Of a DNA stretch of 64,000 nt, positions 8,971 through 51,130 are shown one piece after another. Both the position numbers and the translations under genes were made by a program. Position 1 is the first letter of the stretch; each line of letters starts with the position of its first letter. This DNA is from an uncultured bacterium (lineage in GTDB: Bacteria > Patescibacteriota > Minisyncoccia > Phycocordibacterales > UBA11359), in the NCBI GenBank assembly GCA_903831815.1, contig CAIKZC010000010.1:14914-78913 (forward strand). Reading direction: 5' to 3'. The notes under the pieces were generated by a model. That model worked only from the letters and a program-made list of their open reading frames with translations, did not search any database and was not told the origin of the DNA.

Positions 8971-9045
8971 GGCTCTATCGTCTAACGGTTAGGACACGGC
9001 CTTTTCAAGGCTGGAATCGGGGTTCGATTCCCCGTAGAGTCACCA
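8971..9045 (+). tRNA. tRNA-Glu (anticodon TTC), CCA encoded
   Basis: GGCTCTA acceptor, anticodon stem CGGCC/GGCTG with loop TTTTCAA, T-arm CGGGG-TTCGATT-CCCCG, ACCA. Confidence 0.8.
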
Positions 9046-10673
9046 GTTAACTTTTTACGTCTCAAAAGGGCTTCAAAACCGTCTTTTCCCTTGAAATCTA
9101 CTAGCTTTTTGTTGTTAAAGGTAAGTTCGGTAAACATCATTGCTGCAATATCCCTTTTTTCATTATCAAGAGCGAATTTATAGTACAGGCTCGCACGTTT
9201 GATGAGTTCGGAAAAAGTTGTTACGTATTTGAGCATTTCTTGTGCGGCTTCGCCGTATGCTCCGGCTTTCTGTCTGATCTCATTTAGTTGTCCCATCAGC
9301 CTGTTCTCCTCGGTTTTGGCATCTTCAATGCTCATTGAGTTCGTCCTTAGAAGGGTAATACGATTTTTAGTTAGATAATCCAGATCCGCATAGACTCGCT
9401 TCTCTTGATTGTGAAGATCGTCGAGCTCTTTGTTGCGTTTTATGGTAATCGCATCTATACCTGAGCGTGCTTTGACCTCAAGTTCTCGCAATTCTTCATC
9501 ATCGAAATGCATGCGGTCCATTAGCGACTGTATACTCGCGTGGATATCGCTCTCTTTTAGATTTCTATCTGGGTTATTGCACGTTGCAGCACATCGCAGT
9601 CGATAGTAGCCGATACCCTTTCTTATATAATGACAATATGCACGGCCGCAAGTGCATCGAATCAGTTTTCTGTAAGTTGCGAACTTTTTATTGACGTAAT
9701 ATACCGATACACAACGCGCCTTCAGAACCTCTTGAACCTTATTAAAGAGACTAGTATCTATGAGTGGTTGATGCGCGGTTGAGATTATGAAGCCCTCTTT
9801 TGTTCTGTTCTGGCCTATATAAAATGGGTTAGTTAATATGTGCTCGATCGTTTTGTGTGTCACAGGTCTTGAAATCTTAGGCATCGTTTCGAGTTCTATA
9901 TTGGATAAAATCTGGTCCTCTGTTCTTTTGCCGCGAGAAGGTTTTGTCGTCAGCCCTTGTTCGTTGGCCCATTTACTCAACTCGAGTACACTCCAATCGC
10001 CTGTGGCGTACAATTCAAATATACGCTTTACAATAGGTGCTCGTACTGGGTCTATTGGTTTGTCACCTGATCCATTATCGAGATAGCCGGTAGGAGAGCA
10101 GTTAATGAACTTGCCCTCGGCTCGTAATTTTCTGTTTGTGTTTCTTACTTTTTCACTGATAACTCTAGAGTAGTGGGTAGAGAACATGCCATCGATGTCC
10201 ATGTGTAAGTCACCGGAGCTACTTTTTTCGTAAGTTGTTTCGGAAAATCTAATGTCGCAACCCAGCTTAAGTAACTTTTTGATGATTACGTCATCTTGCC
10301 CGTTGCGACTCGCTCGGTCCCAACATAGGAATATGGCCCCTTTTATTTCTTTATTCTTGAGCATTCCAACAAGTCGCAGAAACTTTGGTCTTTCGATTTT
10401 ATATTGGACAGTGCCGTTCGGCATAATTTCAAAACATTCATCTTCCTTGAAACCGGAATGTCTTTCATTGATAATCCCAGCATTGCAGAAGTTTGGTATT
10501 GTCAGATCGGCTATATTTAATTTTTCTCTTTTTGCGAATCGTAAGTTTGCACCCCTCTGATATTCCAAAGAATTTTTTTGGTTGTCGGCGTCATCTGTAC
10601 TCTTACGGTCGTACACGATGTGCATGTCCCTGAAAGGACTTGATGTTTGTTTTATCTGGTTCTGATTTTTCAT
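8982..10673 (-). CDS. Large serine recombinase/integrase (563 aa); 3' end reads through tRNA-Glu on the opposite strand
   Basis: N-terminal resolvase catalytic domain with YDRKST catalytic-serine context; recombinase domain, Cys-rich zinc-ribbon region (CTCGRAYCH...C) and coiled coil; last ~21 codons are the antisense of the tRNA. Confidence 0.75.
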   Translation of the reverse strand: MKNQNQIKQTSSPFRDMHIVYDRKSTDDADNQKNSLEYQRGANLRFAKREKLNIADLTIPNFCNAGIINERHSGFKEDECFEIMPNGTVQYKIERPKFLRLVGMLKNKEIKGAIFLCWDRASRNGQDDVIIKKLLKLGCDIRFSETTYEKSSSGDLHMDIDGMFSTHYSRVISEKVRNTNRKLRAEGKFINCSPTGYLDNGSGDKPIDPVRAPIVKRIFELYATGDWSVLELSKWANEQGLTTKPSRGKRTEDQILSNIELETMPKISRPVTHKTIEHILTNPFYIGQNRTKEGFIISTAHQPLIDTSLFNKVQEVLKARCVSVYYVNKKFATYRKLIRCTCGRAYCHYIRKGIGYYRLRCAATCNNPDRNLKESDIHASIQSLMDRMHFDDEELRELEVKARSGIDAITIKRNKELDDLHNQEKRVYADLDYLTKNRITLLRTNSMSIEDAKTEENRLMGQLNEIRQKAGAYGEAAQEMLKYVTTFSELIKRASLYYKFALDNEKRDIAAMMFTELTFNNKKLVDFKGKDGFEALLRRKKLTGDSTGNRTPIPALKRPCPNR

Positions 10674-10687
10674 GAATTAGTCGCTAT

Positions 10688-10879
10688 TTACATATTACCG
10701 CATCTCTGGTTTGTTTGTAAGCGCGGTGGCTCGATAATTTGATCATCCTTAATTATGTAGCCTTCTCTCACTAAGCGCATGTGAATTCTCTTTAGTGCGA
10801 CGCCAAGAGCAGTAAGAGCATTGATCTCCATCTCATTGAATTTTTGGTTTTCAGAATTGGGTGTTGATTGTTCCTTCAC
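10688..10879 (-). CDS. Hypothetical small protein
   Basis: 63-aa ORF immediately upstream of and co-oriented with the serine recombinase; no family recognisable (an excisionase/RDF role would be pure speculation). Confidence 0.3.
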   Translation of the reverse strand: MKEQSTPNSENQKFNEMEINALTALGVALKRIHMRLVREGYIIKDDQIIEPPRLQTNQRCGNM

Positions 10880-11022
10880 CCTGTTATCCTATACCCGACA
10901 TTTTTATAGAAATGACTATTTTATATGGTCGAATCTGTCATCAATAAACCAGTGAGCAGGCTAAGGAGAGATTGGCCGGAAGTTCACCTTTTTCTAGTGA
11001 GTATTACTCTTTGTTGAGCTTT

Positions 11023-11140
11023 CATACACCTCATACACTATTGTAATTTAGTCCTTTTTTTAAGGGTATTTTGAGTGTATGTTCAAGTGTATGAGAATTT
11101 GTTGTGTATGATGGACATACAGAGGAGATGCTCATACACA
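11023..11140. repeat. Iteron-like array: about 7 copies of heptamer CATACAC/GTGTATG in both orientations
   Basis: tcatacacctcatacac ... gagtgtatgttcaagtgtatgagaatttgttgtgtatgatgg ... ctcatacacac within ~120 bp of non-coding DNA. Confidence 0.6.
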
Positions 11141-11157
11141 CTAAGCATTCACCCAAA

Positions 11158-12588
11158 TTAAGCCATAATCGCAGGGTCTTTTTTATCAGTGAAGGTTGGT
11201 GTAGGCACGATCTCAGTTTTGTTATCAAAGTATCCGCGGTAAACTTTTTCAACCTGTTCTTTTTTGAAAAGATACCGTTCGCCTTTGTTGTCTCTAGGCA
11301 ATTTTTCAGATGATAGATTGAATTTGTGAATAATTTTTCCGACCTGTGCGGATTGTTGCTTTGCCGATTCGGTGTTATCGAAATACATTTCATTTATGCC
11401 GCTTGCAATTTCCTTTGGCCTTAGGACCATGGAATCGATGTTAGTCAGGTTTTCCATCACTTTTTCTATGATCATTCGTTCTAAATCAGATACTTGGTAT
11501 TCGGCAAAATTGTATTGTGATAGGAATTGCTGCTTAGCATTTTGTTGTTCTGTTTCAGGGATATTGAGAACGGAAAACATGACCTCAAAGGGTATCCATA
11601 ACTCAAGTTGTCGGCCTACGAGTTCCGGTTTTTCTTGGTGTTTGTAAGCAGTTTTTGTTTGGTCATATTTAATTTGGGCAAAATTGAAATTGGAGATGAG
11701 TAATTTATATATGTCATTTCGTACGCCTTTCCAAATAGCATTTTCTTCGTCGAGTGGTTTATATATTTTGCTGCTTCTGATGAGTGAAATAATGAGACAC
11801 CGGTCGCGTAGGTCTTCAGGCAGTTGGTTGATCGAGGCAAAGGCTTTTGGCGTATATGCCTGAAATTCTTGTAGGTTCCAGTTCTTACCTTTATCAGCCA
11901 CCATCTTGCGTATATCGCCGCCGCCGCGTTTGTATGAGTCGGTTAAAATATCCAGAAGGTCATCCATGTTTGGTCTGTGTAAGGCATCAGCTTGATCCAT
12001 AAGATACGTGCCTCTCAACGCGTCGACGGTATCTCGCAATGCCGGTAGACTTGCACGAGCCTTGGTGGCGTTAAAACATATCTGGTTTAGGAAACCTAGA
12101 CACTGAGATTTCCCTGAACCTTTAGGGGCTTTTATATGTAGATATGGATACGCGGAGAATATAGGGAAAAAGTATGTACCAATGGCCCATGTGCACATTA
12201 ACGTTGCGTCCGCATCTTCTATGTCCATGTGCTGTTTCAATGCATCTTTAATGTCGGTGTACAGGTGTTGGGAGTTTATTTTATGCGCTGGCGATAGCCA
12301 ATTTTCGCGAAAGTCATCCAGATTTTTTCTGTCTAGCCTCTGAGAGAATTTTGCCAGTTTCCTTTTTTTGACGTCTATGTAATAGGTTTTGCCACTGATC
12401 ACGAATGACGGCTCTTTGGTAATTTGGAATTGACCCTCCGTAGTAGCAACTATGAATATCTCACTTTCTTTATCAATTTTAGGTTTTACTCTAAATCCAA
12501 GCACCAAGACGCCGTTTTTAATATCGAGAGATGGATGGAATGCTGGCTCATCAAAATAGTCTATATCCTGCGTTTTATTTTTGTCCAT
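11158..12588 (-). CDS. P-loop NTPase of phage/plasmid replication type (VirE/DUF3987-like, primase-associated helicase-like)
   Basis: Walker A-like KAPKGSGKSQ; 476 aa; sits beside the iteron array and a serine recombinase. Confidence 0.4.
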   Translation of the reverse strand: MDKNKTQDIDYFDEPAFHPSLDIKNGVLVLGFRVKPKIDKESEIFIVATTEGQFQITKEPSFVISGKTYYIDVKKRKLAKFSQRLDRKNLDDFRENWLSPAHKINSQHLYTDIKDALKQHMDIEDADATLMCTWAIGTYFFPIFSAYPYLHIKAPKGSGKSQCLGFLNQICFNATKARASLPALRDTVDALRGTYLMDQADALHRPNMDDLLDILTDSYKRGGGDIRKMVADKGKNWNLQEFQAYTPKAFASINQLPEDLRDRCLIISLIRSSKIYKPLDEENAIWKGVRNDIYKLLISNFNFAQIKYDQTKTAYKHQEKPELVGRQLELWIPFEVMFSVLNIPETEQQNAKQQFLSQYNFAEYQVSDLERMIIEKVMENLTNIDSMVLRPKEIASGINEMYFDNTESAKQQSAQVGKIIHKFNLSSEKLPRDNKGERYLFKKEQVEKVYRGYFDNKTEIVPTPTFTDKKDPAIMA

Positions 12589-12615
12589 TTTAATCTGTAT
12601 TTAGTTGATAATTTT

Positions 12616-12933
12616 TTAATCTTTCAGCCTGTCTAGTAATTCACGTCTGGCTTGCTCGTAAACGTGAACGTTTACTAACATATCCGGGTTAGCTCGGTCT
12701 CCGAATTTATAAATATCAACTAGGCGCTTCAGTTGGCTATTGTTCACAAACAAAAACTCCTTTTTATTTGGGTTCTCGGTTGCGTCGATTCCTGTGATCG
12801 GTTGGCCTTTGGCTACTAAGAAGCAGGCGAGCGTGAAAGAGCTCTGCCTATATGTTTTATTTGTGTTGTGCATGTCTATTTTTATATAAGAAAATAAGAC
12901 TATTAATAGCCTTATAATATCTGCACTCTCCAT
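12616..12933 (-). CDS. Hypothetical protein
   Basis: 105-aa ORF, no recognisable family. Confidence 0.3.
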   Translation of the reverse strand: MESADIIRLLIVLFSYIKIDMHNTNKTYRQSSFTLACFLVAKGQPITGIDATENPNKKEFLFVNNSQLKRLVDIYKFGDRANPDMLVNVHVYEQARRELLDRLKD

Positions 12934-12948
12934 ATGAAAATGACAGTT

Positions 12949-13722
12949 TTATAGTGGGGGATTTGTCATCTTGTATTTTTCTCTAAACCTCTTTCTTATT
13001 GTTCGTAATTCGTTCACTCTTTTTCTGTCTCTCGCTTCATCATCATTCGTTGCACTTTCCCAGATTTGACCAACTCGATCTAGATCGATAGCGCTATCAT
13101 CTTGTATTTTACCGTCTTCTCCGCGAGTATCATATACTATTCCTTTTGTTGCCCGTATCTCTATGTCTTTCAACGCGATAGATAGGTTATTCATCGAAGC
13201 CTTTGAAAAATTCTGCCTCTTGAAATTCGGCCATAACTTTTTTTGCTGTTTTTTTATCCAGAACCAGGCTTCCGCTATATCATCAACAGAGGTGTCTGGA
13301 TTCAAGGTTAATACAAGCCTCCGTTTCTCCTTTTTGTTTTTCTCGGCTTTTATATATAAATTGTAAATTGGCGGACTGAACCACCAGCTGATTATGAAAT
13401 CTGTTATAGTATTGAACCACTCCTGTCCCAAATCATTTTTATCTAAAAACTCATCAATATCGTTACTTAGTGCGATGGCTTTTTGAGCACTCAGTGAATT
13501 TATAAATGCTGTCCTTTTTGAATAAGCGATCGCATTTTTTCTTTTTACCTCATCATAACTATCACTATCAAAAAACCATCCCATGGGCTTTTTGAGGTGT
13601 TCAGATTTCCACTTGTCTACCAAACCAGTGATTGAGTCACTGAATTTTTTATTGGTATACAATGAGTCCAAGAAAATGAATGAATTCTTGAACAGATTTC
13701 TGTATGTATCTGATTTTTTCAT
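12949..13722 (-). CDS. Hypothetical protein
   Basis: 257-aa ORF, Lys/Trp-rich, no recognisable family. Confidence 0.35.
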   Translation of the reverse strand: MKKSDTYRNLFKNSFIFLDSLYTNKKFSDSITGLVDKWKSEHLKKPMGWFFDSDSYDEVKRKNAIAYSKRTAFINSLSAQKAIALSNDIDEFLDKNDLGQEWFNTITDFIISWWFSPPIYNLYIKAEKNKKEKRRLVLTLNPDTSVDDIAEAWFWIKKQQKKLWPNFKRQNFSKASMNNLSIALKDIEIRATKGIVYDTRGEDGKIQDDSAIDLDRVGQIWESATNDDEARDRKRVNELRTIRKRFREKYKMTNPPL

Positions 13723-13946
13723 TTTAATCTTTATCTCAATTTACCAATACTACCTCTACCTTAAGATTTTGTTAAGACAAAGATGGTGATTGCCTGAACA
13801 CCCCGCGACAAAGCCTCAAAAATGCCCAACGGCGCCTCGTTTTGCTCATTTAGCCATTAGTGCCTTACTGTGCCCAAAATGGGACTGAAAGATTGAAAAA
13901 GATGAGAAATTGATTTGTTGAGTAAACTTGATAACTTGAAAAACAA

Positions 13947-14444
13947 TTAACTAGTCAGTTCATCGATATTACTAGGTAACGTAGTCGTGCCGCAATTCTT
14001 GTCATTAAGAATGTTAGCTAAAAAACCAGAGGCTACATCGTCATTTGGGGCTCTCAGAAGTACATGGTAAAAAGCCGCACCTGCGTCAGCACAATTACCA
14101 AGACTATAAAGTGCGAATCCTCTGTGATTCCAAAAGTCTATATCGTTCCAAATTAAATCTTTGTGATTTTTGATACCATAGTCTGTCGCATTAACGACAA
14201 ATTGATAATCTTTATTTTGATTTCCCATAAATAAAAAACTATCACGGTCTGCGGATGATAGTGCGTACAAGTCCGGAGTAGTTGATGTGCTTTCTTGGGT
14301 TATGCTTACGGTTGTACTCGTAGAAGTAGCGCTTGAACTGGATTCCGTTCTTTGTGCTGGTTTTGAATGATAGAAAAGTACAACTAAAACAACAACGAGT
14401 CCTAATGCTATGATGCCGATAATTATTTTATTGTTGTTTTTCAC
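13947..14444 (-). CDS. Membrane-anchored extracellular protein (N-terminal TM, Ser/Thr-rich linker)
   Basis: N-terminal hydrophobic anchor IIIGIIALGLVVVLVVLF, then an S/T-rich stretch, then a globular domain with conserved Cys. Confidence 0.45.
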   Translation of the reverse strand: MKNNNKIIIGIIALGLVVVLVVLFYHSKPAQRTESSSSATSTSTTVSITQESTSTTPDLYALSSADRDSFLFMGNQNKDYQFVVNATDYGIKNHKDLIWNDIDFWNHRGFALYSLGNCADAGAAFYHVLLRAPNDDVASGFLANILNDKNCGTTTLPSNIDELTS

Positions 14445-14549
14445 TTTATTTTATTTTCCTTAACAGTATCTCGCTTAATGAGGAAATAGTCTATTGAGTA
14501 TTCGTAATGATATTTTCAATTAATCTTACAATGCGACTATTCATAGAGG

Positions 14550-15086
14550 CTATTGTGTCCAATCATCTTTCATCACTTTACTAATATAGATCATTGCAGA
14601 ATCGTAGTTAGATATAGAGGGGTTATACATAGGCCAAGTGTCATTTTTGTCGACTGGACCATCTATATTTATCCACCCCGTGTTGCCTTTATCTTTATCT
14701 TCAAATGCATAAGCTAATTCATCTTTTGTTTGGCCGTCATATAGAAATCTTGAGTAACTTCCTTTTGCCTCTAACGACCCCATATCACTAAACTCTACAT
14801 AACAGCGGTTCGTTGCTGGGTTATAATGCGAACTTTGGAGTCGAGAGTATCGGTAGTTGCCGCTTGGTTTGCTATCTGAGATTTTTTGACCAAGAGTAGC
14901 ACATTCTGATCGTAAATTGAATACCTCCGTAGCTGTGGGTAAATTATATACTTTTGTTTGCAAATCTAGATTTTGTTTGTTTACTTTACCTGATTCATTT
15001 TGAGTTTTGATAACGACAATAAGCAGAGCTAGGATGATAATGCCTAGCACCGACTCAAACCAATGTTCTTTGATTAATTTTTTCAT
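14550..15086 (-). CDS. Membrane-anchored extracellular protein
   Basis: N-terminal TM VLGIIILALLIVVI; 178 aa. Confidence 0.45.
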   Translation of the reverse strand: MKKLIKEHWFESVLGIIILALLIVVIKTQNESGKVNKQNLDLQTKVYNLPTATEVFNLRSECATLGQKISDSKPSGNYRYSRLQSSHYNPATNRCYVEFSDMGSLEAKGSYSRFLYDGQTKDELAYAFEDKDKGNTGWINIDGPVDKNDTWPMYNPSISNYDSAMIYISKVMKDDWTQ

Positions 15087-15091
15087 GCCAT

Positions 15092-15922
15092 TTAATTATT
15101 ACAACCCCCAGATAACGATAAGCGGTCGTAAAAACTAACCTGATTACAGTTAGGCCGCATCTGTTGAAGTTGTTGTTGAAATAGTTGTTGCTGTCGCTGT
15201 GCTTCTTGTTGTTGTTTCATTTGATCTAATGAACTCTGTACTTGCTGGAGCTGTTGCTGCTGTTGTTGCTGGAGAAGAATTGTTGCGTTTTGAGAAGATT
15301 GCTCAGCGTAGTTTGTGGTGTTATATGTTGGGAGAAAGATAGGAGCTGATTGTTGTCCAGTGTTCTGGCAAGATGTCCTAGTGCTGTTCCACATGTAGCC
15401 ACTTTTACAGAAACAAACAGGGCCACCACTTTCGTTTTTATTGCCAGAATCTACACTATTTTGGCCATACGAATCTTCGCATATTTGTTGATTTGTTTTT
15501 GGCACTGCTTGTGGCGGAGTCGGTTCGATAATTACGGTCGTCCCGTTTGGAAAAGTTGCGCAGTTACTTTCCAGTGTCGCTCCATTTGGACAGAGTGGAA
15601 CTGAGGCTGGTGCAGGTGTCGAAACTGGAACGGAAGTAAGATCAGGAGTAATTACTGTGTTAGAAACTTGTTTTTTAATAGCAGGTTTATTTTTTATTGT
15701 TGAAGTAGCAGTAGATGTTGCTGTATGCGTTTGTATAGTTACAGTTGTAGTACTTACAGAAGTGGTGGTTGTGGAAATATCTATCGGAGTAAATACGGTT
15801 TGAGGTTTAACTACGTTTGACCCAAACCATGTGAATGGATTCCACCAGGAGGCCATGGCTACGGAGGGAGTAACTACTGCTAGTACAATAATCGCAATAA
15901 ATACTTTGTTTAATTTCTGCAT
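15092..15922 (-). CDS. Secreted Thr-rich/Gln-rich protein with Cys-containing middle domain
   Basis: Signal peptide MQKLNKVFIAIIVLAVVTPSVAMA; poly-Thr linker; C-terminal poly-Q/coiled-coil QQQQQQQLQQ. Confidence 0.5.
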   Translation of the reverse strand: MQKLNKVFIAIIVLAVVTPSVAMASWWNPFTWFGSNVVKPQTVFTPIDISTTTTSVSTTTVTIQTHTATSTATSTIKNKPAIKKQVSNTVITPDLTSVPVSTPAPASVPLCPNGATLESNCATFPNGTTVIIEPTPPQAVPKTNQQICEDSYGQNSVDSGNKNESGGPVCFCKSGYMWNSTRTSCQNTGQQSAPIFLPTYNTTNYAEQSSQNATILLQQQQQQQLQQVQSSLDQMKQQQEAQRQQQLFQQQLQQMRPNCNQVSFYDRLSLSGGCNN

Positions 15923-15947
15923 ATTATTAGGCTAATGATGACTATGT

Positions 15948-15963
15948 GTACCACTGTACCACA
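15948..15963. promoter_or_regulatory. Tandem direct repeat TGTACCAC x2 in the divergent promoter region upstream of the XRE gene (candidate operator)
   Basis: tgtaccactgtaccac about 60 nt upstream of the XRE start. Confidence 0.3.
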
Positions 15964-16024
15964 TATTTTGTGATACTCATAGTCCGTCGCCTTAAAGTCA
16001 TCACACGCATACGCTTAGAGTGTA

Positions 16025-16249
16025 ATGATGCCTAAAAATAATGCTATATTAAAGAGCTTCGGTAATCGTGTTAGAGATCTCAGAATTGAGAAGGGTATTA
16101 ACTCACAAATTGCTTTGGCTAACAAAGCTGGGCTGGACCGCACATACATTGGCGGTGTAGAGCGTGGAGAGAGAAATGTGGGTCTTAAGAATATCGAAAA
16201 AATTGCCAAAGTTCTCGGCGTAAGTCTCGGTGAACTTTTTAGATTTTGA
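16025..16249 (+). CDS. XRE-family helix-turn-helix transcriptional regulator
   Basis: Cro/C1-type HTH pattern: [58 protein letters not shown]. Confidence 0.8.
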
Positions 16250-16374
16250 TTATCCGTAGTTTATTTCAAAATACTTATACACCGTTGACGTAAGCGTGAA
16301 TAAATGCTATTTTGAATGCGATCGACTCGGGAAGCGTTTTCCTGAGCATAACTGTTCCTTGAAAGGAGATTCAG

Positions 16375-17256
16375 ATGAAGATGATTATAGCGGTATTAGT
16401 TGTGATGTTTGTTTGTGCTGGCAACGTAATGGCTGGGGCATGGACCACCATTAACATACCTGGCGGCGGCACAAACTTGTTTGGGGTCAGTGGAAATAAC
16501 ATGGTTGGTAGTTCCTCTCGAGGTGGTTCATTCTACGATGGAACAAGCTGGGCTACCATTAACTATCCTGGGGCATCGAGTGCGGTCCCGTACGCGATCA
16601 GTGGCAACACTATCGTGGGTGAATACCGCGGAGGTACCCACAGTGGTCCTGGTAAGCAGGGCTATGGTTTCATCTATGACGGAACAAATTGGACCACCGT
16701 GGATGCCCCTGGACCAAACTACACAATTTTGTGCGGTATTTCTGGGAACAACATTGTTGGTCAGTACACCGATGCCTCTGACAACAATCACGGTTATTTC
16801 TACAATGGAACAAGTTGGGCGACCCTGGACTATCCTGGGGCAGGCGCAACATACCTACAAGGCATTTCCGGCACAAACATCGTTGGTTGGGAAGAAGGTG
16901 CTCCTGATGGTGACAACGCCTTTCTGTATGATGGAACGACGTGGAAAACTCTTGATATGCCCGGGGTGAATAGCTGGAGCATAGTTCCACGTGGCATTGA
17001 CGGCAGCAACATCGTTGGTTACTACAGCGCTCCAGACGCCACGCATGGTTTTCTCTACGACGGGACGACCTGGACCACACTTGATTACCCTGGGGCATTG
17101 GATACGATGGTGTATGGCATATCCGGTGGCGACATCGTTGGTGAGTATACTGACAACTCGGGGAACTATGGGTTTCTCTATACTGTTCCCGAACCAGCAA
17201 CACTTGGGCTGCTCAGTTTCGGTTTTCTGGCTCTGGTGCGCAGGCGACGGCGCTGA
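16375..17256 (+). CDS. Secreted repeat protein with a C-terminal PEP-CTERM sorting signal
   Basis: Signal peptide; about 7 repeats of a ~30-aa motif (Y/F)DGT(S/T)W(A/T)T(I/L)(D/N)YPGA...GISG.NIVG; C-terminus VPEPATLGLLSFGFLALVRRRRR-stop is a textbook PEP-CTERM (PEP, TM helix, Arg cluster); GC markedly above its surroundings. Confidence 0.7.
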   Translation: MKMIIAVLVVMFVCAGNVMAGAWTTINIPGGGTNLFGVSGNNMVGSSSRGGSFYDGTSWATINYPGASSAVPYAISGNTIVGEYRGGTHSGPGKQGYGFIYDGTNWTTVDAPGPNYTILCGISGNNIVGQYTDASDNNHGYFYNGTSWATLDYPGAGATYLQGISGTNIVGWEEGAPDGDNAFLYDGTTWKTLDMPGVNSWSIVPRGIDGSNIVGYYSAPDATHGFLYDGTTWTTLDYPGALDTMVYGISGGDIVGEYTDNSGNYGFLYTVPEPATLGLLSFGFLALVRRRRR

Positions 17257-17361
17257 TCTCGTGTCTTTGTTGGGAACAAAACAAGGCTGGTGGATTCATT
17301 TCCATCGGCCTTTTCTTTTATTTGGGTAATACCTAAGTTAGCCACCCGCTCTGAACATTAA

Positions 17362-17697
17362 TTATAACAAGTGGTCAACAAGCATTCCTTTGTATCTTCT
17401 GCTCCTGTATTCAAGATTTAGGCATTTCCGACAACCAATCTCTGAGTTTAACGGATGCACAAACAACGTACCAACACGTTCACTACATTTTGGGCACTTA
17501 AACCAATACCGCAAACCATTGAATGCGGTTTTAGATGGCGTAAGCTCGATAATCTGATCACTCATTTCAAGTTCGGCTGTTAACAGTACGCCCTTCAGTT
17601 TTGCCTTGGCCTGCCTGATATAGGTTGTGATGTTAATCTTCTGGCAGTCTTCAACCAGCATTTTTTCTCCTAAATCATTTGGGTTGAATGTTTTCAT
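17362..17697 (-). CDS. Hypothetical protein with C-terminal CxxC...CxxC zinc-ribbon
   Basis: CPKCSERVG...CRKC pairs; start taken at the internal Met MKTFNP. Confidence 0.35.
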   Translation of the reverse strand: MKTFNPNDLGEKMLVEDCQKINITTYIRQAKAKLKGVLLTAELEMSDQIIELTPSKTAFNGLRYWFKCPKCSERVGTLFVHPLNSEIGCRKCLNLEYRSRRYKGMLVDHLL

Positions 17698-18331
17698 GAT
17701 AATTACGATTATCGTTAATCTGCTGATTTTGAGCCACAAAAGCGTTGTGAGTTTTTATGTTCACTTCGAGTTGGGGTTGTTTCAATTGCCTTAAAGCCGT
17801 CATCATTGAAAGGAAGTTTCTGTATGATCTGTCGGCTTGTTTACTAAAGAAAGCGCCACATCTTGTTGAGGCGTCATCTACTTCTTCAACACAATTTAGA
17901 AAATCATTGAGTCGCTTCTGATCATTAATCACTTGTACATGAGCGAGCGCAACAAGCTCGGCTGTGGCTTTCTCAAGAGCAGTGGTGCATTTATAATCTT
18001 TTTCGATTTGTTGGACCACATTTAAGACTAGTGGCGCATATTTTTTACTGACGGAGTGTCTGAGATGGTAGTGATTTTCTAAACCTAAAGCCATCACAAA
18101 CTGATCGGATTGTTCCTGAAGATACTTTTTTGCTTCATCTTTTCCTTTTTTACTACCATCTTTCAGTTTCTGTAAGACGCCAGATATTTCACGAAACAAG
18201 TATTCAGGGTCACATCCGGCATGCATGCTATCACGCACAAACTGTTTGCTTTCCTCGGTGGTAGGGGGTTTTGATAAGGCCTTTGTGGTGTGGTTTTCAT
18301 TTTTATTTTGTATTTTGTTTGATATTGACAT
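17675..18331 (-). CDS. Hypothetical protein
   Basis: 218-aa ORF, charged/helical, no recognisable family. Confidence 0.35.
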   Translation of the reverse strand: MSISNKIQNKNENHTTKALSKPPTTEESKQFVRDSMHAGCDPEYLFREISGVLQKLKDGSKKGKDEAKKYLQEQSDQFVMALGLENHYHLRHSVSKKYAPLVLNVVQQIEKDYKCTTALEKATAELVALAHVQVINDQKRLNDFLNCVEEVDDASTRCGAFFSKQADRSYRNFLSMMTALRQLKQPQLEVNIKTHNAFVAQNQQINDNRNYHENIQPK

Positions 18332-18444
18332 GCATTTATCGTGATATACTGTGTTTTGTTAAGTCGTTTATGCCGCGGATGTTAGCTGCTTATTGCTAAG
18401 TGTGAGTTTGTCCAGGAACTTTAGACGGCTGAGTTTATCCATGC

Positions 18445-19983
18445 TTATTTTGATCGCAGGGTATATATTATAAAGTTCGGTAAATAGGTAAACAGGGTCA
18501 CCATTGTTGATGGGTCTCGCAAATATTCTTGATATATGCTGTAAATAGGCGTTAGTTTTGTGGTTCCAAATTTCTCCCCAGAAAAAGGCAGATTTTCTGC
18601 AAAGATTAAATTTTGGAACCGTAGTCTTTTCTCCGGTTTCTTCTCTAGCTTGCGCCAAGTCTCGGCAGTTTTTCTGATGAAGCTAAAACAATACTCTAAG
18701 GCCTCGTCCATATTGAATTCTTCAACTCGTTTGTCGTGAATTTGAGATTCTTTCAGAGCGATTTTTCTGTTTACGTTATCTTTCTGCATTATGAACTCCT
18801 CTTTGGTGTAGGTGTTGGATTCTAGAAGTTCAAATACACGTTGTCGTTGTTGCTCCAGTACTTTTATCTCTTTTCTGATCTGTGCGTTCTGCTCGTCGAA
18901 GTTTTTAAAATTGTTTTTCCAAATATCTAGGACGATAGCTTTGAAGGCTTTTTCATATTGCATGCTTGGATTGATTTCGTTTAGGTGTTCGACGAACATC
19001 TGCTCAAATGATTCTTTAGGAATGAATTTAGCGTGTTCACATTTCTGCTTGTGGTGGTGATAGTATGGGTACCTCTTGCCCGCTTGTCCGGTTGAGTGGC
19101 TACCAGTTAGAGGTTCGTGGCAAAATTGACATACGGCCAATTTCCTTAAGGGGAAAGAGCTGTTGTGTGTCAGGTGTGGCGAGTTCTTGTGTTTGCGACC
19201 GGATTCTTGGCAGAGGTAGAAAAGATTTTCGTCTACGATTGGTTCAAATGAGCCTTTGCTATCAATGTCCCAAACTCGGATAATTCCGCAATAGAGAGGG
19301 TTCTTGATGATTTTCTCAACAAGCTGAGGGATAGCGGTATTGCCTTGTCTGGTGACGAAACCACGCTTGTTTAAGAAGGTTGCCAGAGAGATATAGGTGT
19401 AAGTACCTTTTGAATATTCTTGAAATGCCATTTTGATATAGGGAGCATACTTTGGATCGGGTACGAGGTTGCCGGCTTTTTCGGTTCGACAATATCCGAG
19501 TGGTGCTTGCCAGACCCAGATACCTTGCTTGATTCTTTCTCGCATACCGTTGACGCTTCTTTCTGTTCTTACGTTGTTATCAAATTCAGCAAAACCGGAG
19601 AGCATGACTTCCATGAGTTTGCCGGATGGAGTGTCATCTATTTTTTCAGAAACGGAACGAATTTCGGTGCCGTAATTTTTGAGTTTTTGTTTGACGATGG
19701 CATAGTCAGTTTGGTTGCGGGAAAATCTATCGATTTTGTAGACGATAAAATAGGCAACTTTATTTTTCTTGTTGGAGCAAAGTGAAATGGCTTTGATGAA
19801 TTCAGTACGATCAGCAGTTTTTGCAGACTCGCCACGTTCGATATAAATCTGGAGGATGTTTACATTTTCTCGTTTAGCATATTCCTTGCACATACGCTCT
19901 TGAGATTCCAAACTGGTGCCGTCAACTTGTTCGAGTGAAGAGACTCGACAATATATTATTCCATTTTTGAGTTCGTTATTCAT
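18445..19983 (-). CDS. Large serine recombinase (512 aa), paralogue of the 26322..27860 recombinase
   Basis: YCRVSSLEQ catalytic-serine motif, resolvase domain, recombinase domain, Cys/His-rich zinc module (CQFCHEPL...YYHHHKQKCEH), C-terminal coiled coil. Confidence 0.75.
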   Translation of the reverse strand: MNNELKNGIIYCRVSSLEQVDGTSLESQERMCKEYAKRENVNILQIYIERGESAKTADRTEFIKAISLCSNKKNKVAYFIVYKIDRFSRNQTDYAIVKQKLKNYGTEIRSVSEKIDDTPSGKLMEVMLSGFAEFDNNVRTERSVNGMRERIKQGIWVWQAPLGYCRTEKAGNLVPDPKYAPYIKMAFQEYSKGTYTYISLATFLNKRGFVTRQGNTAIPQLVEKIIKNPLYCGIIRVWDIDSKGSFEPIVDENLFYLCQESGRKHKNSPHLTHNSSFPLRKLAVCQFCHEPLTGSHSTGQAGKRYPYYHHHKQKCEHAKFIPKESFEQMFVEHLNEINPSMQYEKAFKAIVLDIWKNNFKNFDEQNAQIRKEIKVLEQQRQRVFELLESNTYTKEEFIMQKDNVNRKIALKESQIHDKRVEEFNMDEALEYCFSFIRKTAETWRKLEKKPEKRLRFQNLIFAENLPFSGEKFGTTKLTPIYSIYQEYLRDPSTMVTLFTYLPNFIIYTLRSK

Positions 19984-19993
19984 GGCAGTAGTT

Positions 19994-20179
19994 TTACATA
20001 TCCAAATTTAGAAGTCTATCCACCCCAAGGGGATTATTGGAACCACATTTGTCCTCAATGAAACATTCAATGGCTAGTTGGGCTTGGCCATATAGTAAAT
20101 TACGAATTTTCGTTAATTCTTCGTCAGATTTTTCTTGCAAGGCCGGCTCTATTCTTTTGAGTTCATCGAGGGAGATCAT
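19994..20179 (-). CDS. Hypothetical small protein (overlaps the Rep gene by 4 nt: ATGA)
   Basis: 61-aa ORF translationally coupled to the upstream rep. Confidence 0.3.
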   Translation of the reverse strand: MISLDELKRIEPALQEKSDEELTKIRNLLYGQAQLAIECFIEDKCGSNNPLGVDRLLNLDM

Positions 20180-20982
20180 AGCAGTTCGCGAAGGTTGGGC
20201 AGGATGTCAAAAATCGACTGCTTTTTGCCAAGATTGTATTGTTTGTAGCCGACTGTTCCATTGTAAGAGCTTTCAAAATCTTTTTCTTTGGTGAGAAATT
20301 TTTGTGGTATCAGTTTAGAAATTCTGGTAGCTTTAATATGATCTTTGATCACGATAGGCCTGTGGAGGTAACGACTCGGAAAATATCTTTTTAATCCATC
20401 TAGTCGGCTGTCCGCTAAATTCTTGGACATATATTTTGAAATATACGCACCTACATTATTCACGTTTTCAATCGCTTTGATTTTGATATGACCGTATCGC
20501 CAGAGTTCAGCCAAAGTTTCTTTCTTGATGAATTTCAGATTGAAGAAAATAGTGTGATAGTGAATCGCTCCACGTTTTTGGAATTCAATGACCACGACAT
20601 ATTTGAGTAGATTGTTTTCGTCTACCGCATAATTAAGACGTTTAATAAAATTAGAAAATATTTTATTCGCTTCTTTTATGTTTTGGATATTTTCTTTAAA
20701 AGTAAAAGTAACGAAAACCGGAGGGTAGGGAACGGCATCTTTTTTGAACCATTGCCAAGCATTGGTGTTGACCAGTCTTCGCAAGATTGAATTTGTACGA
20801 TGAAGTGATCGTTGTTGAGATTCCGCTTTGCGCTGTTTGCTGGCTTCATCAGTCACCACAATTCTGGATCGAGTACGGCTTTGTTCGGGTACGGTAAAAT
20901 CATAGGACAGTGGTTTGTCGTCATAGCTGTATTCCTCAATAGTGGAACCAGAAAATATTAGTTTTTTCTTAGTTAATTTCAT
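20176..20982 (-). CDS. HUH rolling-circle replication initiator (two-tyrosine, phiX174 gpA/Microviridae VP4-like or plasmid Rep-like)
   Basis: Metal-binding HUH motif AIHYHTIFF and catalytic motif GAYISKYMSK (Y-x-x-K-Y); start taken at the internal Met MKLTKKK (track start 21063 would translate the upstream GC hairpin). Confidence 0.55.
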   Translation of the reverse strand: MKLTKKKLIFSGSTIEEYSYDDKPLSYDFTVPEQSRTRSRIVVTDEASKQRKAESQQRSLHRTNSILRRLVNTNAWQWFKKDAVPYPPVFVTFTFKENIQNIKEANKIFSNFIKRLNYAVDENNLLKYVVVIEFQKRGAIHYHTIFFNLKFIKKETLAELWRYGHIKIKAIENVNNVGAYISKYMSKNLADSRLDGLKRYFPSRYLHRPIVIKDHIKATRISKLIPQKFLTKEKDFESSYNGTVGYKQYNLGKKQSIFDILPNLRELL

Positions 20983-21034
20983 CCCTTTATGTGTGACTAT
21001 AATCAAGTCCAACCGGACTTCGCTTCGCTCGTCC

Positions 21035-21061
21035 GCCCGCCCCGCATAAGCGGGGGCGGGC
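21035..21061. promoter_or_regulatory. GC-rich hairpin immediately upstream of the Rep gene: candidate rolling-circle origin (nick-site stem-loop) or regulatory structure
   Basis: GCCCGCCCCGC-ATAA-GCGGGGGCGGGC: ~11-bp nearly pure-GC stem with one bulge in otherwise AT-rich DNA, ~50 nt upstream of the preferred Rep start. Confidence 0.4.
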
Positions 21062-21154
21062 ACCCGACAGCGATAGCAAAAAGACCATGATGTATTGTCA
21101 TGGCCAAGTATAAATAACGACTTAGAGAAAACTTTTCTAGAAATTCGGTAAAGT

Positions 21155-21895
21155 TTATAGAACCCTTAAATATTCTGGGTTAATTCGCACTTTTCCGGAT
21201 ATGGTAGAGTTAAAAATTAGAAATTGTTTGATCTTGTTGTCGGTCGCTTCTCGCACTTTTTCGTTGATGGCTTTGCAGGCAGAGTGATAGCGTTTCCAGT
21301 TATCTTTGTCTTTGGTGTATAGCTCCTTATTTTCGCCAAATTCCTCTCTGGCTATTTCAGCGTAATAGAACTCGTCTTTCAGATTATCTTCGTGATCAAT
21401 GAAAATATTTTTTAGAATTTTGTGTTCGTTGGTTACCTTGTCTTGTCTGGCGATTTTGATCTCGTGTTCACCAATTCGCAAGATACTTTCTGCTTCATTA
21501 AATTCCGGTGTTCTTATTATCTCTTTTGGTTCAATACCTCGCTTATACCGCTCCAGTACTTTATATATTGAATCGGCGACAATGACGTAGAATATTGGAA
21601 TTCGTATTACTCCGTTTACCGTATTATCTACGTCAAAATCGTCTACGTTAGGGTCGAACTTGGCCGGATCGCGAACGGTTTCAATAATTATGCAACCTTT
21701 TTGCTCTAAATATTCAAGAGCTGAACAAAAACCGTATCGGTTCATATTGAGCGGTTCGATATCTTCGCCATATATATCGATGGTAGGTGGTTCATCCTCC
21801 GATGTATGAAGATACCTAGCAGATATCTCAAATTCTTTGAGTTTGAAGACTAATAGCTCTAGTGTTTTGATGATTTCTTGGTCGAAATTGTCCAT
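21155..21895 (-). CDS. Hypothetical protein
   Basis: 246-aa acidic ORF, no recognisable family. Confidence 0.35.
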   Translation of the reverse strand: MDNFDQEIIKTLELLVFKLKEFEISARYLHTSEDEPPTIDIYGEDIEPLNMNRYGFCSALEYLEQKGCIIIETVRDPAKFDPNVDDFDVDNTVNGVIRIPIFYVIVADSIYKVLERYKRGIEPKEIIRTPEFNEAESILRIGEHEIKIARQDKVTNEHKILKNIFIDHEDNLKDEFYYAEIAREEFGENKELYTKDKDNWKRYHSACKAINEKVREATDNKIKQFLIFNSTISGKVRINPEYLRVL

Positions 21896-22019: not shown

Positions 22020-22241
22020 ATGACAAGGTCTATAAGAACAAGGGAATATGCTTATTTTGTCGAGCGATTAAGAAAAGCTCGTGAAGAGGCGGGATTAACT
22101 CAGGTGGAGGTTGCTAGGAAGTTAAAACGTCCGCAGTCGCATATTTCTAATGTGGAATCCGGACAGCAAAGGGTTGATGTTGTCGAACTTCAAAACTTTG
22201 CGAAGATCTATAATAAGGAAATAGGGTATTTTATTAAATAA
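22020..22241 (+). CDS. XRE-family HTH transcriptional regulator
   Basis: GLTQVEVARKLKRPQSHISNVESGQQRVDVVELQNFAKIY Cro/C1-type HTH. Confidence 0.8.
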   Translation: MTRSIRTREYAYFVERLRKAREEAGLTQVEVARKLKRPQSHISNVESGQQRVDVVELQNFAKIYNKEIGYFIK

Positions 22242-22247
22242 AAATTT

Positions 22248-22757
22248 ATGTTTTGTAAACATTGTGGGACTAGCTTGGAAGAAGGAGTGAAGTTTTGTGG
22301 TAAGTGTGGAGGAAAAAATGCAGATGCCGTTGCTCTTGCAGAATCTTCTTTTGTAATACAGGAAGGTTTTTTTGAGCGTATTTCCACGGGCAGACTCGGC
22401 AGACGAAATTATTTCTTTGGCTTATTGTACACAATTTTGCCGATTCCTATTTTGGTTACGTTTTGGGGGTTGATTAGTTTTCTTCTGGGTCAAGAGTCTC
22501 CGATCTTCTCATTTTTTAGCATGATAATCCCGCTTCTTATTGGTCTTGCTGTATTATGGTTCCTAGCCTCTCTTCCTGTGTCTATCTGCATAACAATTAG
22601 ACGTTGTCATGATTTCGGTTTGAGTGGGTGGTTTGTTCTATTAGGAGGCATAATAATGTTAATTGCATTATTTCCAGGTAGTAACAAAGGCTTAAATGAA
22701 TACGGTAAACCGCCGGTGAAAGGCAGGAAATTTTTATCTGATATTTTTAATAAATAA
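22248..22757 (+). CDS. Zinc-ribbon domain membrane protein with DUF805-like 4-TM region
   Basis: N-terminal MFCKHCG...KFCGKCG double CxxC zinc ribbon, then a DUF805-like hydrophobic core (YFFGLLYTILPIPILVTFW...). Confidence 0.6.
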   Translation: MFCKHCGTSLEEGVKFCGKCGGKNADAVALAESSFVIQEGFFERISTGRLGRRNYFFGLLYTILPIPILVTFWGLISFLLGQESPIFSFFSMIIPLLIGLAVLWFLASLPVSICITIRRCHDFGLSGWFVLLGGIIMLIALFPGSNKGLNEYGKPPVKGRKFLSDIFNK

Positions 22758-22762
22758 AAACC

Positions 22763-25667: not shown

Positions 25668-25693
25668 CCACGATACCCTTAAACTCCTGGTGT

Positions 25694-25743
25694 GCCCTTA
25701 TATTCCCACAAACTTGGTCCCAATTCCATTTAACGAGGGTCAC
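25694..25743. repeat. Direct repeat copy 1 (50 bp, 45/50 identical to 26286..26335) flanking the NUDIX gene
   Basis: GCCCTTATATTCCCACAAACTTGGTCCCAATTCCATTTAACGAGGGTCAC. Confidence 0.6.
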
Positions 25744-26247: not shown

Positions 26248-26285
26248 ATGGGTGTTACCTGACTAAAGCACTTAATTCCTGAAAA

Positions 26286-26335
26286 GCCCTTATATTTCCA
26301 CAAAGTTGGTTCCAATTCCATCTAACGTGGGTCAC
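26286..26335. repeat. Direct repeat copy 2 (matches 25694..25743); its GGGTCAC end abuts the left inverted repeat of the recombinase element
   Basis: GCCCTTATATTTCCACAAAGTTGGTTCCAATTCCATCTAACGTGGGTCAC. Confidence 0.6.
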
Positions 26336-27860
26336 ATTCAGATACTTCGGCAGTGGTGAGCGTAAAATGGGAGCGCGCCGCAGGCGCGCTGTAGGGTGAG
26401 AGGGAGGATTTCCCCTTGCGGGTGCGGACGAAAATGGAGGGCGGGCAAAATGAGATTGAGATAGTTTTGTCTTTTAGCGCGGGGTTCGTTCCAAAAGAGC
26501 GGAGAAAATCTCTCATCTCATGGAGATTTTCGCCCGTTGCCAGAAACCCCGCGCGTTTTGAATCCAAAATCCATTTCCGCAGGGGTTCGACCCAATTCTT
26601 TCTCTCGGCTCGGGCAGATGAAGATTTTGCTTGAAGCGAAAGTTTTTGACGCATGAGTGCGTCTTTTTTGGTCAAATATATCTCGCGCTCAATATCTTGG
26701 TTTAAGTACAAATCAACAAGTGCGTCTAACTTCGCTTCAAGAGTCTTCAAATCTTCCTTCATCTGCCCGAGACGATTTCCCGAAGCGTTGATTTCATCGT
26801 GCTCAAATTCTCCAACTTTTTTGAGCATATAATCTGCCCACGCTTCGGGAAACGACACTGATTGAAGCTGTTCCTTTATTTGGAGAGCGAGCGCACCTTC
26901 CTGCAAATATCCCTGACTACATTTTCCTTTCTTTTTCGTGCAACGATAATAGCGATACCTCCCGCCCATTTTTCCAGTACACCATTGAGCAGTAATCATA
27001 GAGTCACATTCGCCGCAACGAAAAAGACCGGTGAAAGGAAAATTGTGGGATATTTTGCTATGCCTCGGATGCGCTCGCTCCTCCAATCTTTTCTGTACAG
27101 CTTCAAACAGGGTCGGAGAAAGAATCGGTGCAAAGCTTCCGGGAAAAAATTCCCCATGATGTTTGGTGAAGCCGAGATACGCTCGATTGGTCAATATTCT
27201 TTTCACGGAAGCTTTGCCAAGTGGCGTTCCGGACTTTTGTGCTACACCGTGGAGAGCCAAAAACTGCGACAACGAAACTAGGGTATGTGAACCTTTTACA
27301 TATTCTTCATATGCTCGAACAATGATTTTAGATTTCACTGGATCAGGCTCTATGTTACGCGTAACGGGATTGTTCACATACCCGAATGGAGCCCGAGTCA
27401 ACCACTCTCCTCGTCGCAGTTTTTGGCGCATACCTCGCTCAACGTTTTGCTTTAAGTTGTCAGAATAATACTTACTTTGTCCGAACGCCACTTGAAGCAT
27501 AAAGAGACCATGCGGAGTTGGCTCAAACCAAAATGTCGGAAAGCGCAAAGAGACTATTTTAGAAGTGTCGACGGCATAAATGATGCGTCCACCGTCAATG
27601 CTGTTTCTGGCTAGACGGTCGGGGTGCCAGGCGAGAATTCCAACATTACCGACTTTCTCAATTTTAAGCATCATTTTGCCGAACACTTCTCTTCCGGGGC
27701 TCTTGGCGCTTTTCGACTCTTGAAATTCCTCAAGGATTTCAAGATTTTCTCTGCTCGCAAATTCACGAAGTTCTACAAGCTGGGCAGGAATGCTCATGAC
27801 TTGCTTGTCGTCATCTTCAGTACTCTTGCGAGCATAGAGAAAATATTTTGGTTTGTTCAT
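26322..27860 (-). CDS. Large serine recombinase (512 aa) of the IS-like element
   Basis: YARKSTEDDD catalytic-serine motif; resolvase + recombinase domains; zinc ribbon CGECDSM...YYRCTKKKGKC; coiled coil; last ~45 codons lie inside the left inverted repeat. Confidence 0.75.
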   Translation of the reverse strand: MNKPKYFLYARKSTEDDDKQVMSIPAQLVELREFASRENLEILEEFQESKSAKSPGREVFGKMMLKIEKVGNVGILAWHPDRLARNSIDGGRIIYAVDTSKIVSLRFPTFWFEPTPHGLFMLQVAFGQSKYYSDNLKQNVERGMRQKLRRGEWLTRAPFGYVNNPVTRNIEPDPVKSKIIVRAYEEYVKGSHTLVSLSQFLALHGVAQKSGTPLGKASVKRILTNRAYLGFTKHHGEFFPGSFAPILSPTLFEAVQKRLEERAHPRHSKISHNFPFTGLFRCGECDSMITAQWCTGKMGGRYRYYRCTKKKGKCSQGYLQEGALALQIKEQLQSVSFPEAWADYMLKKVGEFEHDEINASGNRLGQMKEDLKTLEAKLDALVDLYLNQDIEREIYLTKKDALMRQKLSLQAKSSSARAERKNWVEPLRKWILDSKRAGFLATGENLHEMRDFLRSFGTNPALKDKTISISFCPPSIFVRTRKGKSSLSPYSAPAARSHFTLTTAEVSECDPR

Positions 27861-28021
27861 ATATATGTTTTGGATTCAAAAAAGGAAACTATCTCAATCT
27901 CATTTTGCCCGCCCTCCATTTTCGTCCGCACCCGCAAGGGGAAATCCTCCCTCTCACCCTACAGCGCGCCTGCGGCGCGCTCCCATTTTACGCTCACCCC
28001 TGCCGAAGTATCTGAATGTGA
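26333..28021. mobile_element. Compact IS-like element: one large serine recombinase gene bounded by ~135-bp near-perfect terminal inverted repeats
   Basis: Reverse complement of 26333..26467 matches 27886..28021 almost perfectly (1-2 mismatches seen by eye); the repeats are far more GC-rich than flanking DNA, carry an internal palindrome GCGCGCCGCAGGCGCGC, and enclose only the recombinase. Confidence 0.65.
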
Positions 28022-50076: not shown

Positions 50077-50202
50077 TGCTACCTCTCTTTCTTTTCCGTG
50101 TTTTTTGTTGTCAAAGGTAGCAACGCGCTACCAAACTAGGCACAGAGTATTGTATCATAATACAACGATAAAGTCAAGAATCGTGAAAATATATAAAAAA
50201 AT

Positions 50203-50240
50203 AACCGCGGACACCAGTTTTTAAACTGGCGCCGCGGTTT
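50203..50240 (-). terminator. Intrinsic terminator hairpin (AACCGCGG...CCGCGGTT with inner palindrome CCAGTTTTTAAACTGG)
   Basis: Downstream of the stop of 50273..51085 on the minus strand, followed by a T-run on that strand. Confidence 0.5.
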
Positions 50241-50272
50241 GTTGACCTTCTTCGTCGTAGTGGTCAAGAGTG

Positions 50273-51085: not shown

Positions 51086-51130
51086 AAAAGAACGAAAAAC
51101 AAAACGAAGGATCGAACTTCCTTGCTCAGC

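Follow-up and report, generated by a model that had tools for sequence, protein, structure and literature searches.

A planctomycete-type PEP-CTERM beta-propeller protein carried by an integrative element in a Parcubacteria genome

We find that a PEP-CTERM propeller protein of an ordinary, planctomycete-type family is encoded in an unusual host. The DNA analysed is a stretch of 64 kb, called the window in the following, which judged by its GyrA comes from a CPR bacterium of the Parcubacteria. The gene is part of a discrete integrative element, Element A, which is inserted at the 3′ end of a tRNA gene. We consider it rather probable that the propeller was acquired by Parcubacteria from the planctomycete-type family, is Sec-exported as cargo of Element A, is retained in the membrane by its C-terminal helix together with a cluster of arginines, and is displayed on the cell surface in a lectin-like manner, its PEP motif being probably left unprocessed.

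The ORF list confirms the reading frame of the initial annotation with its 293 amino acids and also contains the long overlapping ORFs in alternative frames which had been pointed out across the gene. The positions of the gene, of its signals and of the surrounding element are collected in Table 1. By inspection, the propeller starts with what looks like a Sec signal peptide (MKMIIAVLVVMFVCAGNVMA followed by GAW). In the AF2 model residues 2-16 and 276-292 form the only helices, the first of them followed by a low-confidence linker; everything between the helices is predicted to be beta structure, with no internal transmembrane segment. The body is rich in Thr, Ser, Asn and Gly and contains few basic residues.

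Table 1. Features of the propeller gene and of its genomic surroundings (positions are those of the window)
Feature	Position	Strand	Evidence
CDS of the propeller protein (PEP-CTERM, six-bladed, 293 aa), including the stop codon	16375..17256	+	ORF list, homologues, AF2 model
Predicted signal peptide, residues 1-21 (MKMIIAVLVVMFVCAGNVMA, cleavage before G)	16375..16437	+	Inspection, AF2 helix, similar N-termini in aligned homologues
Six beta-propeller blades, residues 23-270, each W-x-T-[ILV]-[DN]-x-P-G ... G-I-S/D-G-x-N-I-V-G ... H-G-F-L-Y-D-G-T	16441..17184	+	
PEP-CTERM domain (VPEPATLGLLSFGFLALVRRRRR): PEP motif, transmembrane helix, Arg cluster; last 23 residues	17185..17253	+	TIGR02595, PF07589, AF2 helix 276-292
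Promoter-like site (TTGACG, 17-nt spacer, TG, TATTTT), consensus match only	16285..16313	+	Consensus scan, sequence
Shine-Dalgarno sequence GAAAGGAGA, strong, consensus match only	16361-16369	+	Upstream of the propeller gene
Intrinsic-terminator-like hairpin: 12-bp stem, then T run; 27 nt past the propeller stop codon	17283..17312	+	Scan, sequence
Xre-type HTH regulator, directly upstream of the propeller gene, same strand	16025..16249	+	PF01381, 3.3e-13
Element A, integrative, 9,458 bp, carries the propeller gene	9046..18503	.	Absent from syntenic sister genome L068; junctions mapped
Large serine recombinase of Element A; last 21 codons antisense through tRNA-Glu	8982..10673	-	Resolvase and Recombinase domains; phrog_95 integrase 7.5e-52
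tRNA-Glu(UUC), integration target	8971..9045	+	ARAGORN, Rfam
Left direct-repeat copy AGAGTCACCA, 3′ end of tRNA-Glu	9036-9045	+	Junction alignment
Right direct-repeat copy AGGGTCACCA, junction of Element A and Element B	18494..18503	+	Junction alignment
Element B core: serine recombinase, 61-aa ORF, rolling-circle Rep, 246-aa ORF	18445..21895	-	Domain searches, comparison with L068

The host was suspected from the beginning to be a CPR-like bacterium with a reduced genome, and a comparison of GyrA now places it in the Parcubacteria. The window GyrA is 92% identical to a protein of Candidatus Taylorbacteria and 71-75% identical to its counterparts in many other Patescibacteria/Parcubacteria. 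Further housekeeping genes of the window code for a class-I aminoacyl-tRNA synthetase (734 aa), TsaD, FtsZ, FtsA, IF-2 (525 aa) and ClpB. Since IF-2 and the class-I aminoacyl-tRNA synthetase are among the genes flanking the region, the latter lies inside a bacterial chromosome.

The mobile region proposed in the initial annotation is borne out as a discrete element of 9.46 kb. A sister genome (L068), which we reached via the protein cluster of the Rep protein, shows synteny to the left and to the right of the element, its housekeeping proteins being 72-92% identical; it has no counterpart of positions 9046 to 18503. The direct repeat which bounds Element A is 10 bp long and reads AG(A/G)GTCACCA. 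Besides the propeller, the element encodes among others the HTH regulator, a DUF5659 protein and a protein of 476 aa whose GSGKS resembles a Walker A motif, and three small proteins of the element are N-terminally anchored or have signal sequences. Altogether the window contains three large serine recombinases and one rolling-circle Rep. The core of Element B is 80-96% identical in L068; its module of Rep, 61-aa ORF and recombinase reaches 95-96% identity and directly adjoins tRNA-Glu there. Element B was integrated earlier, and Element A lies in tandem with it. We also looked for a strain without the island through exact matches to the malic enzyme encoded in its flank, and there was no such record.

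Element A resembles the serine-recombinase integrative elements which target tRNA genes: the recombinase sits at one end, the insertion is at the 3′ end of the tRNA gene, the direct repeat is short and a second element occupies the same site in tandem. In contrast to such elements, it carries no recognisable replication initiator and no conjugation or phage structural genes. To our knowledge, elements of this type have been poorly described in CPR bacteria. A phage origin of the propeller or of Element A was considered and rejected, since a search of the Element A proteins against PHROGs returned the integrase only and no phage structural genes, and a scan of the viral contigs in IMG/VR gave no relative of the propeller.

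Relatives of the propeller are numerous. We found at least 750 homologues at E <= 1e-3, the best of them with E values of 1e-108 to 1e-55 and a coverage of 90-100%; in this search no homologue exceeded 46% identity, and nearly all share the architecture from the signal peptide through to the (T/V)(I/V)PEPAT...RRK tail. The best match outside the CPR is about 46-50% identical. Among species-representative genomes the relatives amount to 62 loci, of which the top two belong to the Ca. Staskawiczbacteria MAGs JAPLZF01 and CAISIO01 and almost all others to Planctomycetota (Sedimentisphaerales, Phycisphaerales, Pirellulales). The planctomycete proteins form an unnamed family of about 290-310 aa with six repeats, which matches the window propeller end to end in architecture at a full-length identity of 40-50%; its blades ('HGFLYDGTTWTTLDxPGA...GIxGxNIVG') and its (T/V)(I/V)PEPAT...RR(K/R) tail are the same as in the window protein. 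Examples are a 358-aa hypothetical protein of Planctomycetes bacterium GWC2_45_44 and a Phycisphaerae 'PEP-CTERM sorting domain-containing protein'. Full-length homology, six blades, signal peptide and tail thus place the window protein within this planctomycete-type family, for which there is no curated model.

In a neighbour-joining tree the window protein forms a clade with two proteins of Ca. Staskawiczbacteria, L005 (53-56% identical to the window propeller) and L006 (45% identical), with a bootstrap value of 84/100, and this clade is nested within planctomycete sequences. Because of this nesting and of the taxonomic distribution of the family, a transfer from Planctomycetota to Parcubacteria is the most economical reading, and we regard the evidence for this direction as strong. 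The surroundings of the genes differ as well. At the planctomycete-type loci examined, the gene lies among ordinary chromosomal housekeeping genes and its GC content is near or below that of the flanks. Planctomycete copies are chromosomal, compositionally native and often present in several copies, whereas the window copy resides on a CPR integrative element and has a residual excess of GC3. The two low-GC copies whose neighbours we read appear to sit in variable DNA: as far as can be told from the translations, L005 has as neighbours an ORF resembling a tyrosine integrase and a pair resembling a type III restriction-modification system, and L108, from a contig with a GC content of 0.36, lies between defence-like genes. 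Element A itself is not shared by the L005, L006 or L108 copies. L108 was found in the JGI metagenomes with a CPR-only profile, which retrieved two low-GC contigs, the second (L132) with a fusion protein, and no full-length match above 48% identity.

Horizontal acquisition had originally been proposed on the grounds of the anomalous GC content. The excess is indeed real, as the propeller gene has a GC content of 0.515 and its neighbours one of 0.36-0.42 (background about 0.40). We recoded the propeller protein with the codon usage of the housekeeping genes of the window and obtained an expected GC content of 0.488, so that the observed value is higher with z=2.9; the corresponding GC3 values are 0.519 (observed) and 0.450 (expected), z=2.5. 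Over-used in comparison with the host are GGG (0.22 versus 0.04), CTG (0.31 versus 0.07) and also AAC. About three quarters of the excess is, however, due to an amino acid composition rich in Gly, Thr, Ala and Pro. At the codon level L005 has a similar excess (z=2.7) and L006 has none. The codon-level residue is therefore modest but significant and supports a foreign origin weakly; as main evidence for a transfer the GC content is ruled out. Since the excess is largely driven by composition, the argument for a foreign origin is carried by the phylogeny and the taxonomic distribution, and it is mainly on these that the proposed acquisition stands.

We now turn to the tail of the protein, which had been described as a textbook PEP-CTERM signal. 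The propeller ends with ...YTVPEPATLGLLSFGFLALVRRRRR directly before the stop codon. TIGR02595 scores 24.8 bits over residues 271-293 (curated cut-off 16) and PF07589 scores 27.9 bits (curated cut-off 20.7). Both profiles identify the tail as a genuine PEP-CTERM domain, and the description holds. PEP-CTERM domains have been defined by their co-occurrence with EpsH/exosortase, an outer membrane and EPS genes, and the proteins are multiple per genome with a median of 8; in the proposed model, the C-terminal helix anchors the protein in the state before EpsH acts, once the signal peptide has been cleaved (Haft et al. 2006, PMC1569441). With the proteins of this PEP-CTERM/exosortase system (EpsH, XrtA) the propeller shares the signal peptide, the composition of the body, the lack of an internal transmembrane segment and a tail above both HMM cut-offs (PMC1569441). 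It differs in its host, a CPR bacterium (Parcubacteria), and in the setting of its gene, of which a mobile element carries one copy where many copies on the chromosome would be usual; nor does the 64-kb window contain an exosortase, an EPS locus or a further PEP-CTERM protein.

The statement of the initial annotation that no exosortase is visible in the window agrees with our searches. A Pfam scan found none among the ORFs of at least 250 aa in the 64 kb, the sole polytopic membrane ORF being a PrsW protease, and the Pfam-annotated gene list of the adjoining 10 kb or so on the left has none; a look-up at the right end contributed little more than the window itself. A six-frame scan with a regular expression, which is an imperfect tool, recognised no second PEP-CTERM tail in the window, nor did we find another PEP-CTERM protein in a further GC-rich patch at 49.5-52.2 kb. 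In the low-GC contig L108 and in the loci around L005 and L006, which span 7-21 kb, the propeller has the only PEP-CTERM tail recognised by the same imperfect expression. A literature search found no paper which links exosortases or PEP-CTERM proteins to CPR bacteria. From the window and the gene list of about 10 kb to the left, the PEP-CTERM signal appears to be an orphan.

The body of the protein is indeed made of repeats as noted initially, but instead of about seven repeats of about 30 aa there are six of 36-47 aa (median 42), which start at residues 23, 59, 106, 148, 190 and 233. The repeats are also seen at the DNA level as the repeat families D1 and D2. The AF2 model, computed from an alignment of 21 sequences, has a pLDDT of 90.8 and a pTM of 0.86 and consists of the N-terminal helix, about 24 beta-strands and the C-terminal helix. 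The strands are arranged in six four-stranded blades around a central axis, and with high confidence the predicted fold of the body is that of a six-bladed beta-propeller which resembles lectins and sialidases. Foldseek matched the model to the RSL, AAL and Pizza6 propellers; the TM-scores to lectins are 0.45-0.59 at a sequence identity of at most 18%. Towards the known six-bladed lectins and sensors (tectonin 2 5fsb, fish-egg lectin 4ruq, the RSL/AAL fucose lectins, the PknD extracellular domain 1rwi, TolB and the sialidases) the identity of the propeller is just 3-18%, and their ligand specificity is not transferable to it. At best the model hints at a function as a binding module, which is possibly lectin-like.

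Two named groups were considered for the body and rejected. The propeller has no sialidase/BNR signature among the Pfam and NCBIfam models, and membership in the sialidases/neuraminidases (GH33) is discarded in view of the missing BNR/Asp-box and catalytic motifs and of an identity to sialidase structures of 3-8%. The HAF extracellular repeat (TIGR02913) has a similar motif flavour, which we take to be 'H-[AG]-F-[LI]-[WY] ... G ... G-[IV]-N/S-x-x-G-x-[IV]-V-G', and HAF repeats occur in secreted repeat proteins which often have a PEP-CTERM tail. This model is, however, absent from the NCBIfam matches of the propeller even at E <= 1. A search of the PDB sequences with the family profile gave spurious weak matches only and no relative.

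We suggest the following course of events. A large unnamed propeller family is native to Planctomycetota (Sedimentisphaerales/Phycisphaerae, Pirellulales), where the PEP-CTERM tail is the standard C-terminus. One branch of this family has almost certainly moved into Parcubacteria, where it now travels in DNA that is variable or mobile. The window copy is cargo of the serine-recombinase element at the 3′ end of tRNA-Glu, with a putative cassette of its own made of promoter, Shine-Dalgarno sequence and terminator, beside the Xre-type regulator. After export the signal peptide would be cut off, and the propeller would face the cell exterior. The hydrophobic C-terminal helix and the RRRRR cluster could then form a type-I anchor within the only membrane of the cell, the cytoplasmic one. 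Patescibacteria/CPR cells are not known to have an outer membrane, and because of this and because the window shows no exosortase, the CPR cell probably does not process the PEP motif. For this anchoring without processing we have moderate confidence. On the CPR surface the propeller itself would most plausibly bind like a lectin and so attach the cell to a glycan or to a partner cell, and it would be one of several surface proteins brought by Element A; the proposed binding function is a weak suggestion from the fold.

A different fate of the tail would follow if an exosortase-family enzyme is encoded elsewhere in the host, or in the three CPR lineages. The propeller would then be a normal processed substrate, cut at the PEP motif and released or attached to a polymer. 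All three CPR proteins retain an intact PEP motif (VPEPAT, VPEPST, IPEPST) at an identity of only 45-56%, and their adjacent transmembrane residues have drifted. Should this divergence have arisen inside the CPR, selection still acts on the motif, and this speaks for a processing partner. Moreover, our search covered 64 kb and the short gene list to the left, in a genome of at least 228 kb. Some monoderm Firmicutes have exosortase homologues (XrtG), and thus a missing outer membrane does not exclude an exosortase. Nevertheless we regard such an enzyme as rather unlikely. Neither an exosortase nor a second PEP-CTERM protein turned up in the window, in the left gene list or in the 7-21-kb loci of the low-GC copies (exosortase HMMs were applied to the window ORFs), the literature search found no report of an exosortase in CPR bacteria, and the small Element A which brings the propeller gene carries no such enzyme. 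PEP-CTERM proteins furthermore come as several per genome and only together with an outer membrane and EPS genes (PMC1569441).

The gene could also be a recently captured planctomycete gene which is functionless in the CPR cell and either unexpressed or decaying, and the residual foreign codon usage (GGG, CTG, GC3 z=2.5) and the position in accessory DNA missing from the sister genome would fit. Against this, the ORF is intact with signal peptide, six blades and tail in three CPR lineages at about 50% sequence divergence, has its own promoter-like site, strong Shine-Dalgarno sequence and terminator, and was recovered with identical sequence from several samples. The codon usage of L006 is fully ameliorated, which points to a long residence in a low-GC genome. 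Taken together, we find a mere drifting passenger quite improbable. Finally, a GC content of 0.515 in a genome of about 0.40 and the planctomycete origin of the closest named relatives might raise the suspicion that a planctomycete fragment was misjoined into a CPR contig by assembly or binning. The gene and its flanks are, however, 100% identical over 2-10 kb in contigs of four other assemblies, which rules out a chimeric join. On one and the same contig, low-GC genes of the element lie on both sides of the propeller gene, followed by CPR housekeeping genes, and the borders of the element are clean with the 10-bp repeat at the tRNA. The composition is mostly explained by the amino acid content, and two unrelated CPR MAGs of other studies hold members of the same clade. 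An artefact of this kind is effectively refuted. We favour an acquired propeller protein which is membrane-anchored by its probably unprocessed PEP-CTERM tail.

Our analysis documents a transfer of a surface protein across phyla, from Planctomycetota to Parcubacteria, and a cleanly bounded integrative element in a CPR genome which targets a tRNA gene. As PEP-CTERM proteins have been defined for bacteria with an outer membrane and an exosortase only, a well-supported copy in the CPR is informative. Kept by at least three CPR lineages and mobilised by small integrative elements, it either exemplifies a signal reduced to a plain membrane anchor or hints at an unrecognised sorting partner of some CPR bacteria.

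CPR cells hold on to their hosts by surface proteins, and the hosts of Parcubacteria are mostly unknown. Acquired surface cargo is therefore a reasonable source of host clues. It is conceivable, though at present a long shot, that the CPR branch of the propeller family records a physical association of Taylorbacteria- and Staskawiczbacteria-like Parcubacteria with Planctomycetota such as Sedimentisphaerales or Phycisphaerae. The captured host-type surface protein, with its PEP motif under selection, would then bind or mimic the host envelope, or use the exosortase of the host at the cell-cell contact. If true, this would be the first PEP-CTERM protein which works outside a diderm, exosortase-bearing cell, and sequences would offer a way to approach the unknown hosts of Parcubacteria. 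The propeller of Element A may thus be a possible clue to these hosts.

Each of two serine recombinase open reading frames reads through its attachment site. The final 21 codons of the recombinase located at the tRNA-Glu gene run antisense to the tRNA, and the orthologous recombinase of the syntenic sister genome (L068) carries the same 21-aa tail; there its element abuts the tRNA. From the read-through and the shared tail we therefore conclude that the same tRNA-Glu site is used in tandem by two different elements.

The window encodes a third large serine recombinase. Its gene is flanked by an inverted repeat of 144 nt (97% complementary), one arm of which is formed by the gene's own 3' end, and the assemblies of other samples break at this structure. 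Recombinase and repeat together could form an invertible or self-flanked recombinase cassette. In addition we found a 62-nt direct repeat (84% identity between the two copies) which recurs with 86-95% identity in the variable region of the sister genome. This repeat is possibly att-like or belongs to some other type of recurring intergenic element.

Two adjacent paralogous genes, one for a 169-aa product with DUF805 and the other for a 377-aa product, have in common their upstream sequence and a zinc-ribbon start. Inside the first of these paralogues, at position 22430, a contig from another sample (L001) diverges from the window.

Coordinates of the features (positions in the window unless a contig or locus is named)
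Feature	Coordinates	Strand
Attachment sites with recombinase read-through	8971-10673 and 18445-18503	
Genes of three small Element A proteins	13947-15922	
Shared upstream sequence and start of the paralogous genes	22227-22298 and 22742-22813	
62-nt direct repeat	25682-25743 and 26274-26335	
62-nt direct repeat, sister genome	L068 6144-6205 and 6945-7007	
Third large serine recombinase gene	26322..27860	minus
144-nt inverted repeat	26332-26475 and 27878-28021	
Second GC-rich patch	49468-52204	
Four-tRNA-gene cluster	52816-53274	
Kelch-repeat protein	~61225 to beyond 64000 (L153 6907-9699)	
Propeller fusion	L132 102-3404	
PEP-CTERM propeller copy	L108 1981-2892	

Beside the group of four tRNA genes lies a second GC-rich patch (0.54-0.57 GC, GC3 0.56-0.57), possibly a further island that was acquired. 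The hypothetical proteins encoded by this patch (202, 270 and 357 aa) are rich in Pro, Gly and Gln, and none of them has a match in Pfam.

Downstream of ClpB lies the gene of a 930-aa Kelch-repeat beta-propeller protein, a further large propeller protein in this small genome. Relatives of the PEP-CTERM propeller are found on two metagenome contigs of low GC (0.36). One is a fusion of 1100 aa which joins the propeller to further extracellular regions and has no PEP-CTERM tail; the other, a PEP-CTERM copy of 303 aa, is flanked by defence-like genes, labelled by inspection only as nuclease-like and type IIG restriction-modification-like.

Besides the propeller, the integrative Element A encodes three small proteins of 165, 178 and 276 aa. 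They contain regions rich in Ser/Thr, Cys or Gln, have no family assignment, and carry hydrophobic N-terminal anchors or signal sequences. Thus, Element A brings a set of surface proteins and not the propeller alone.
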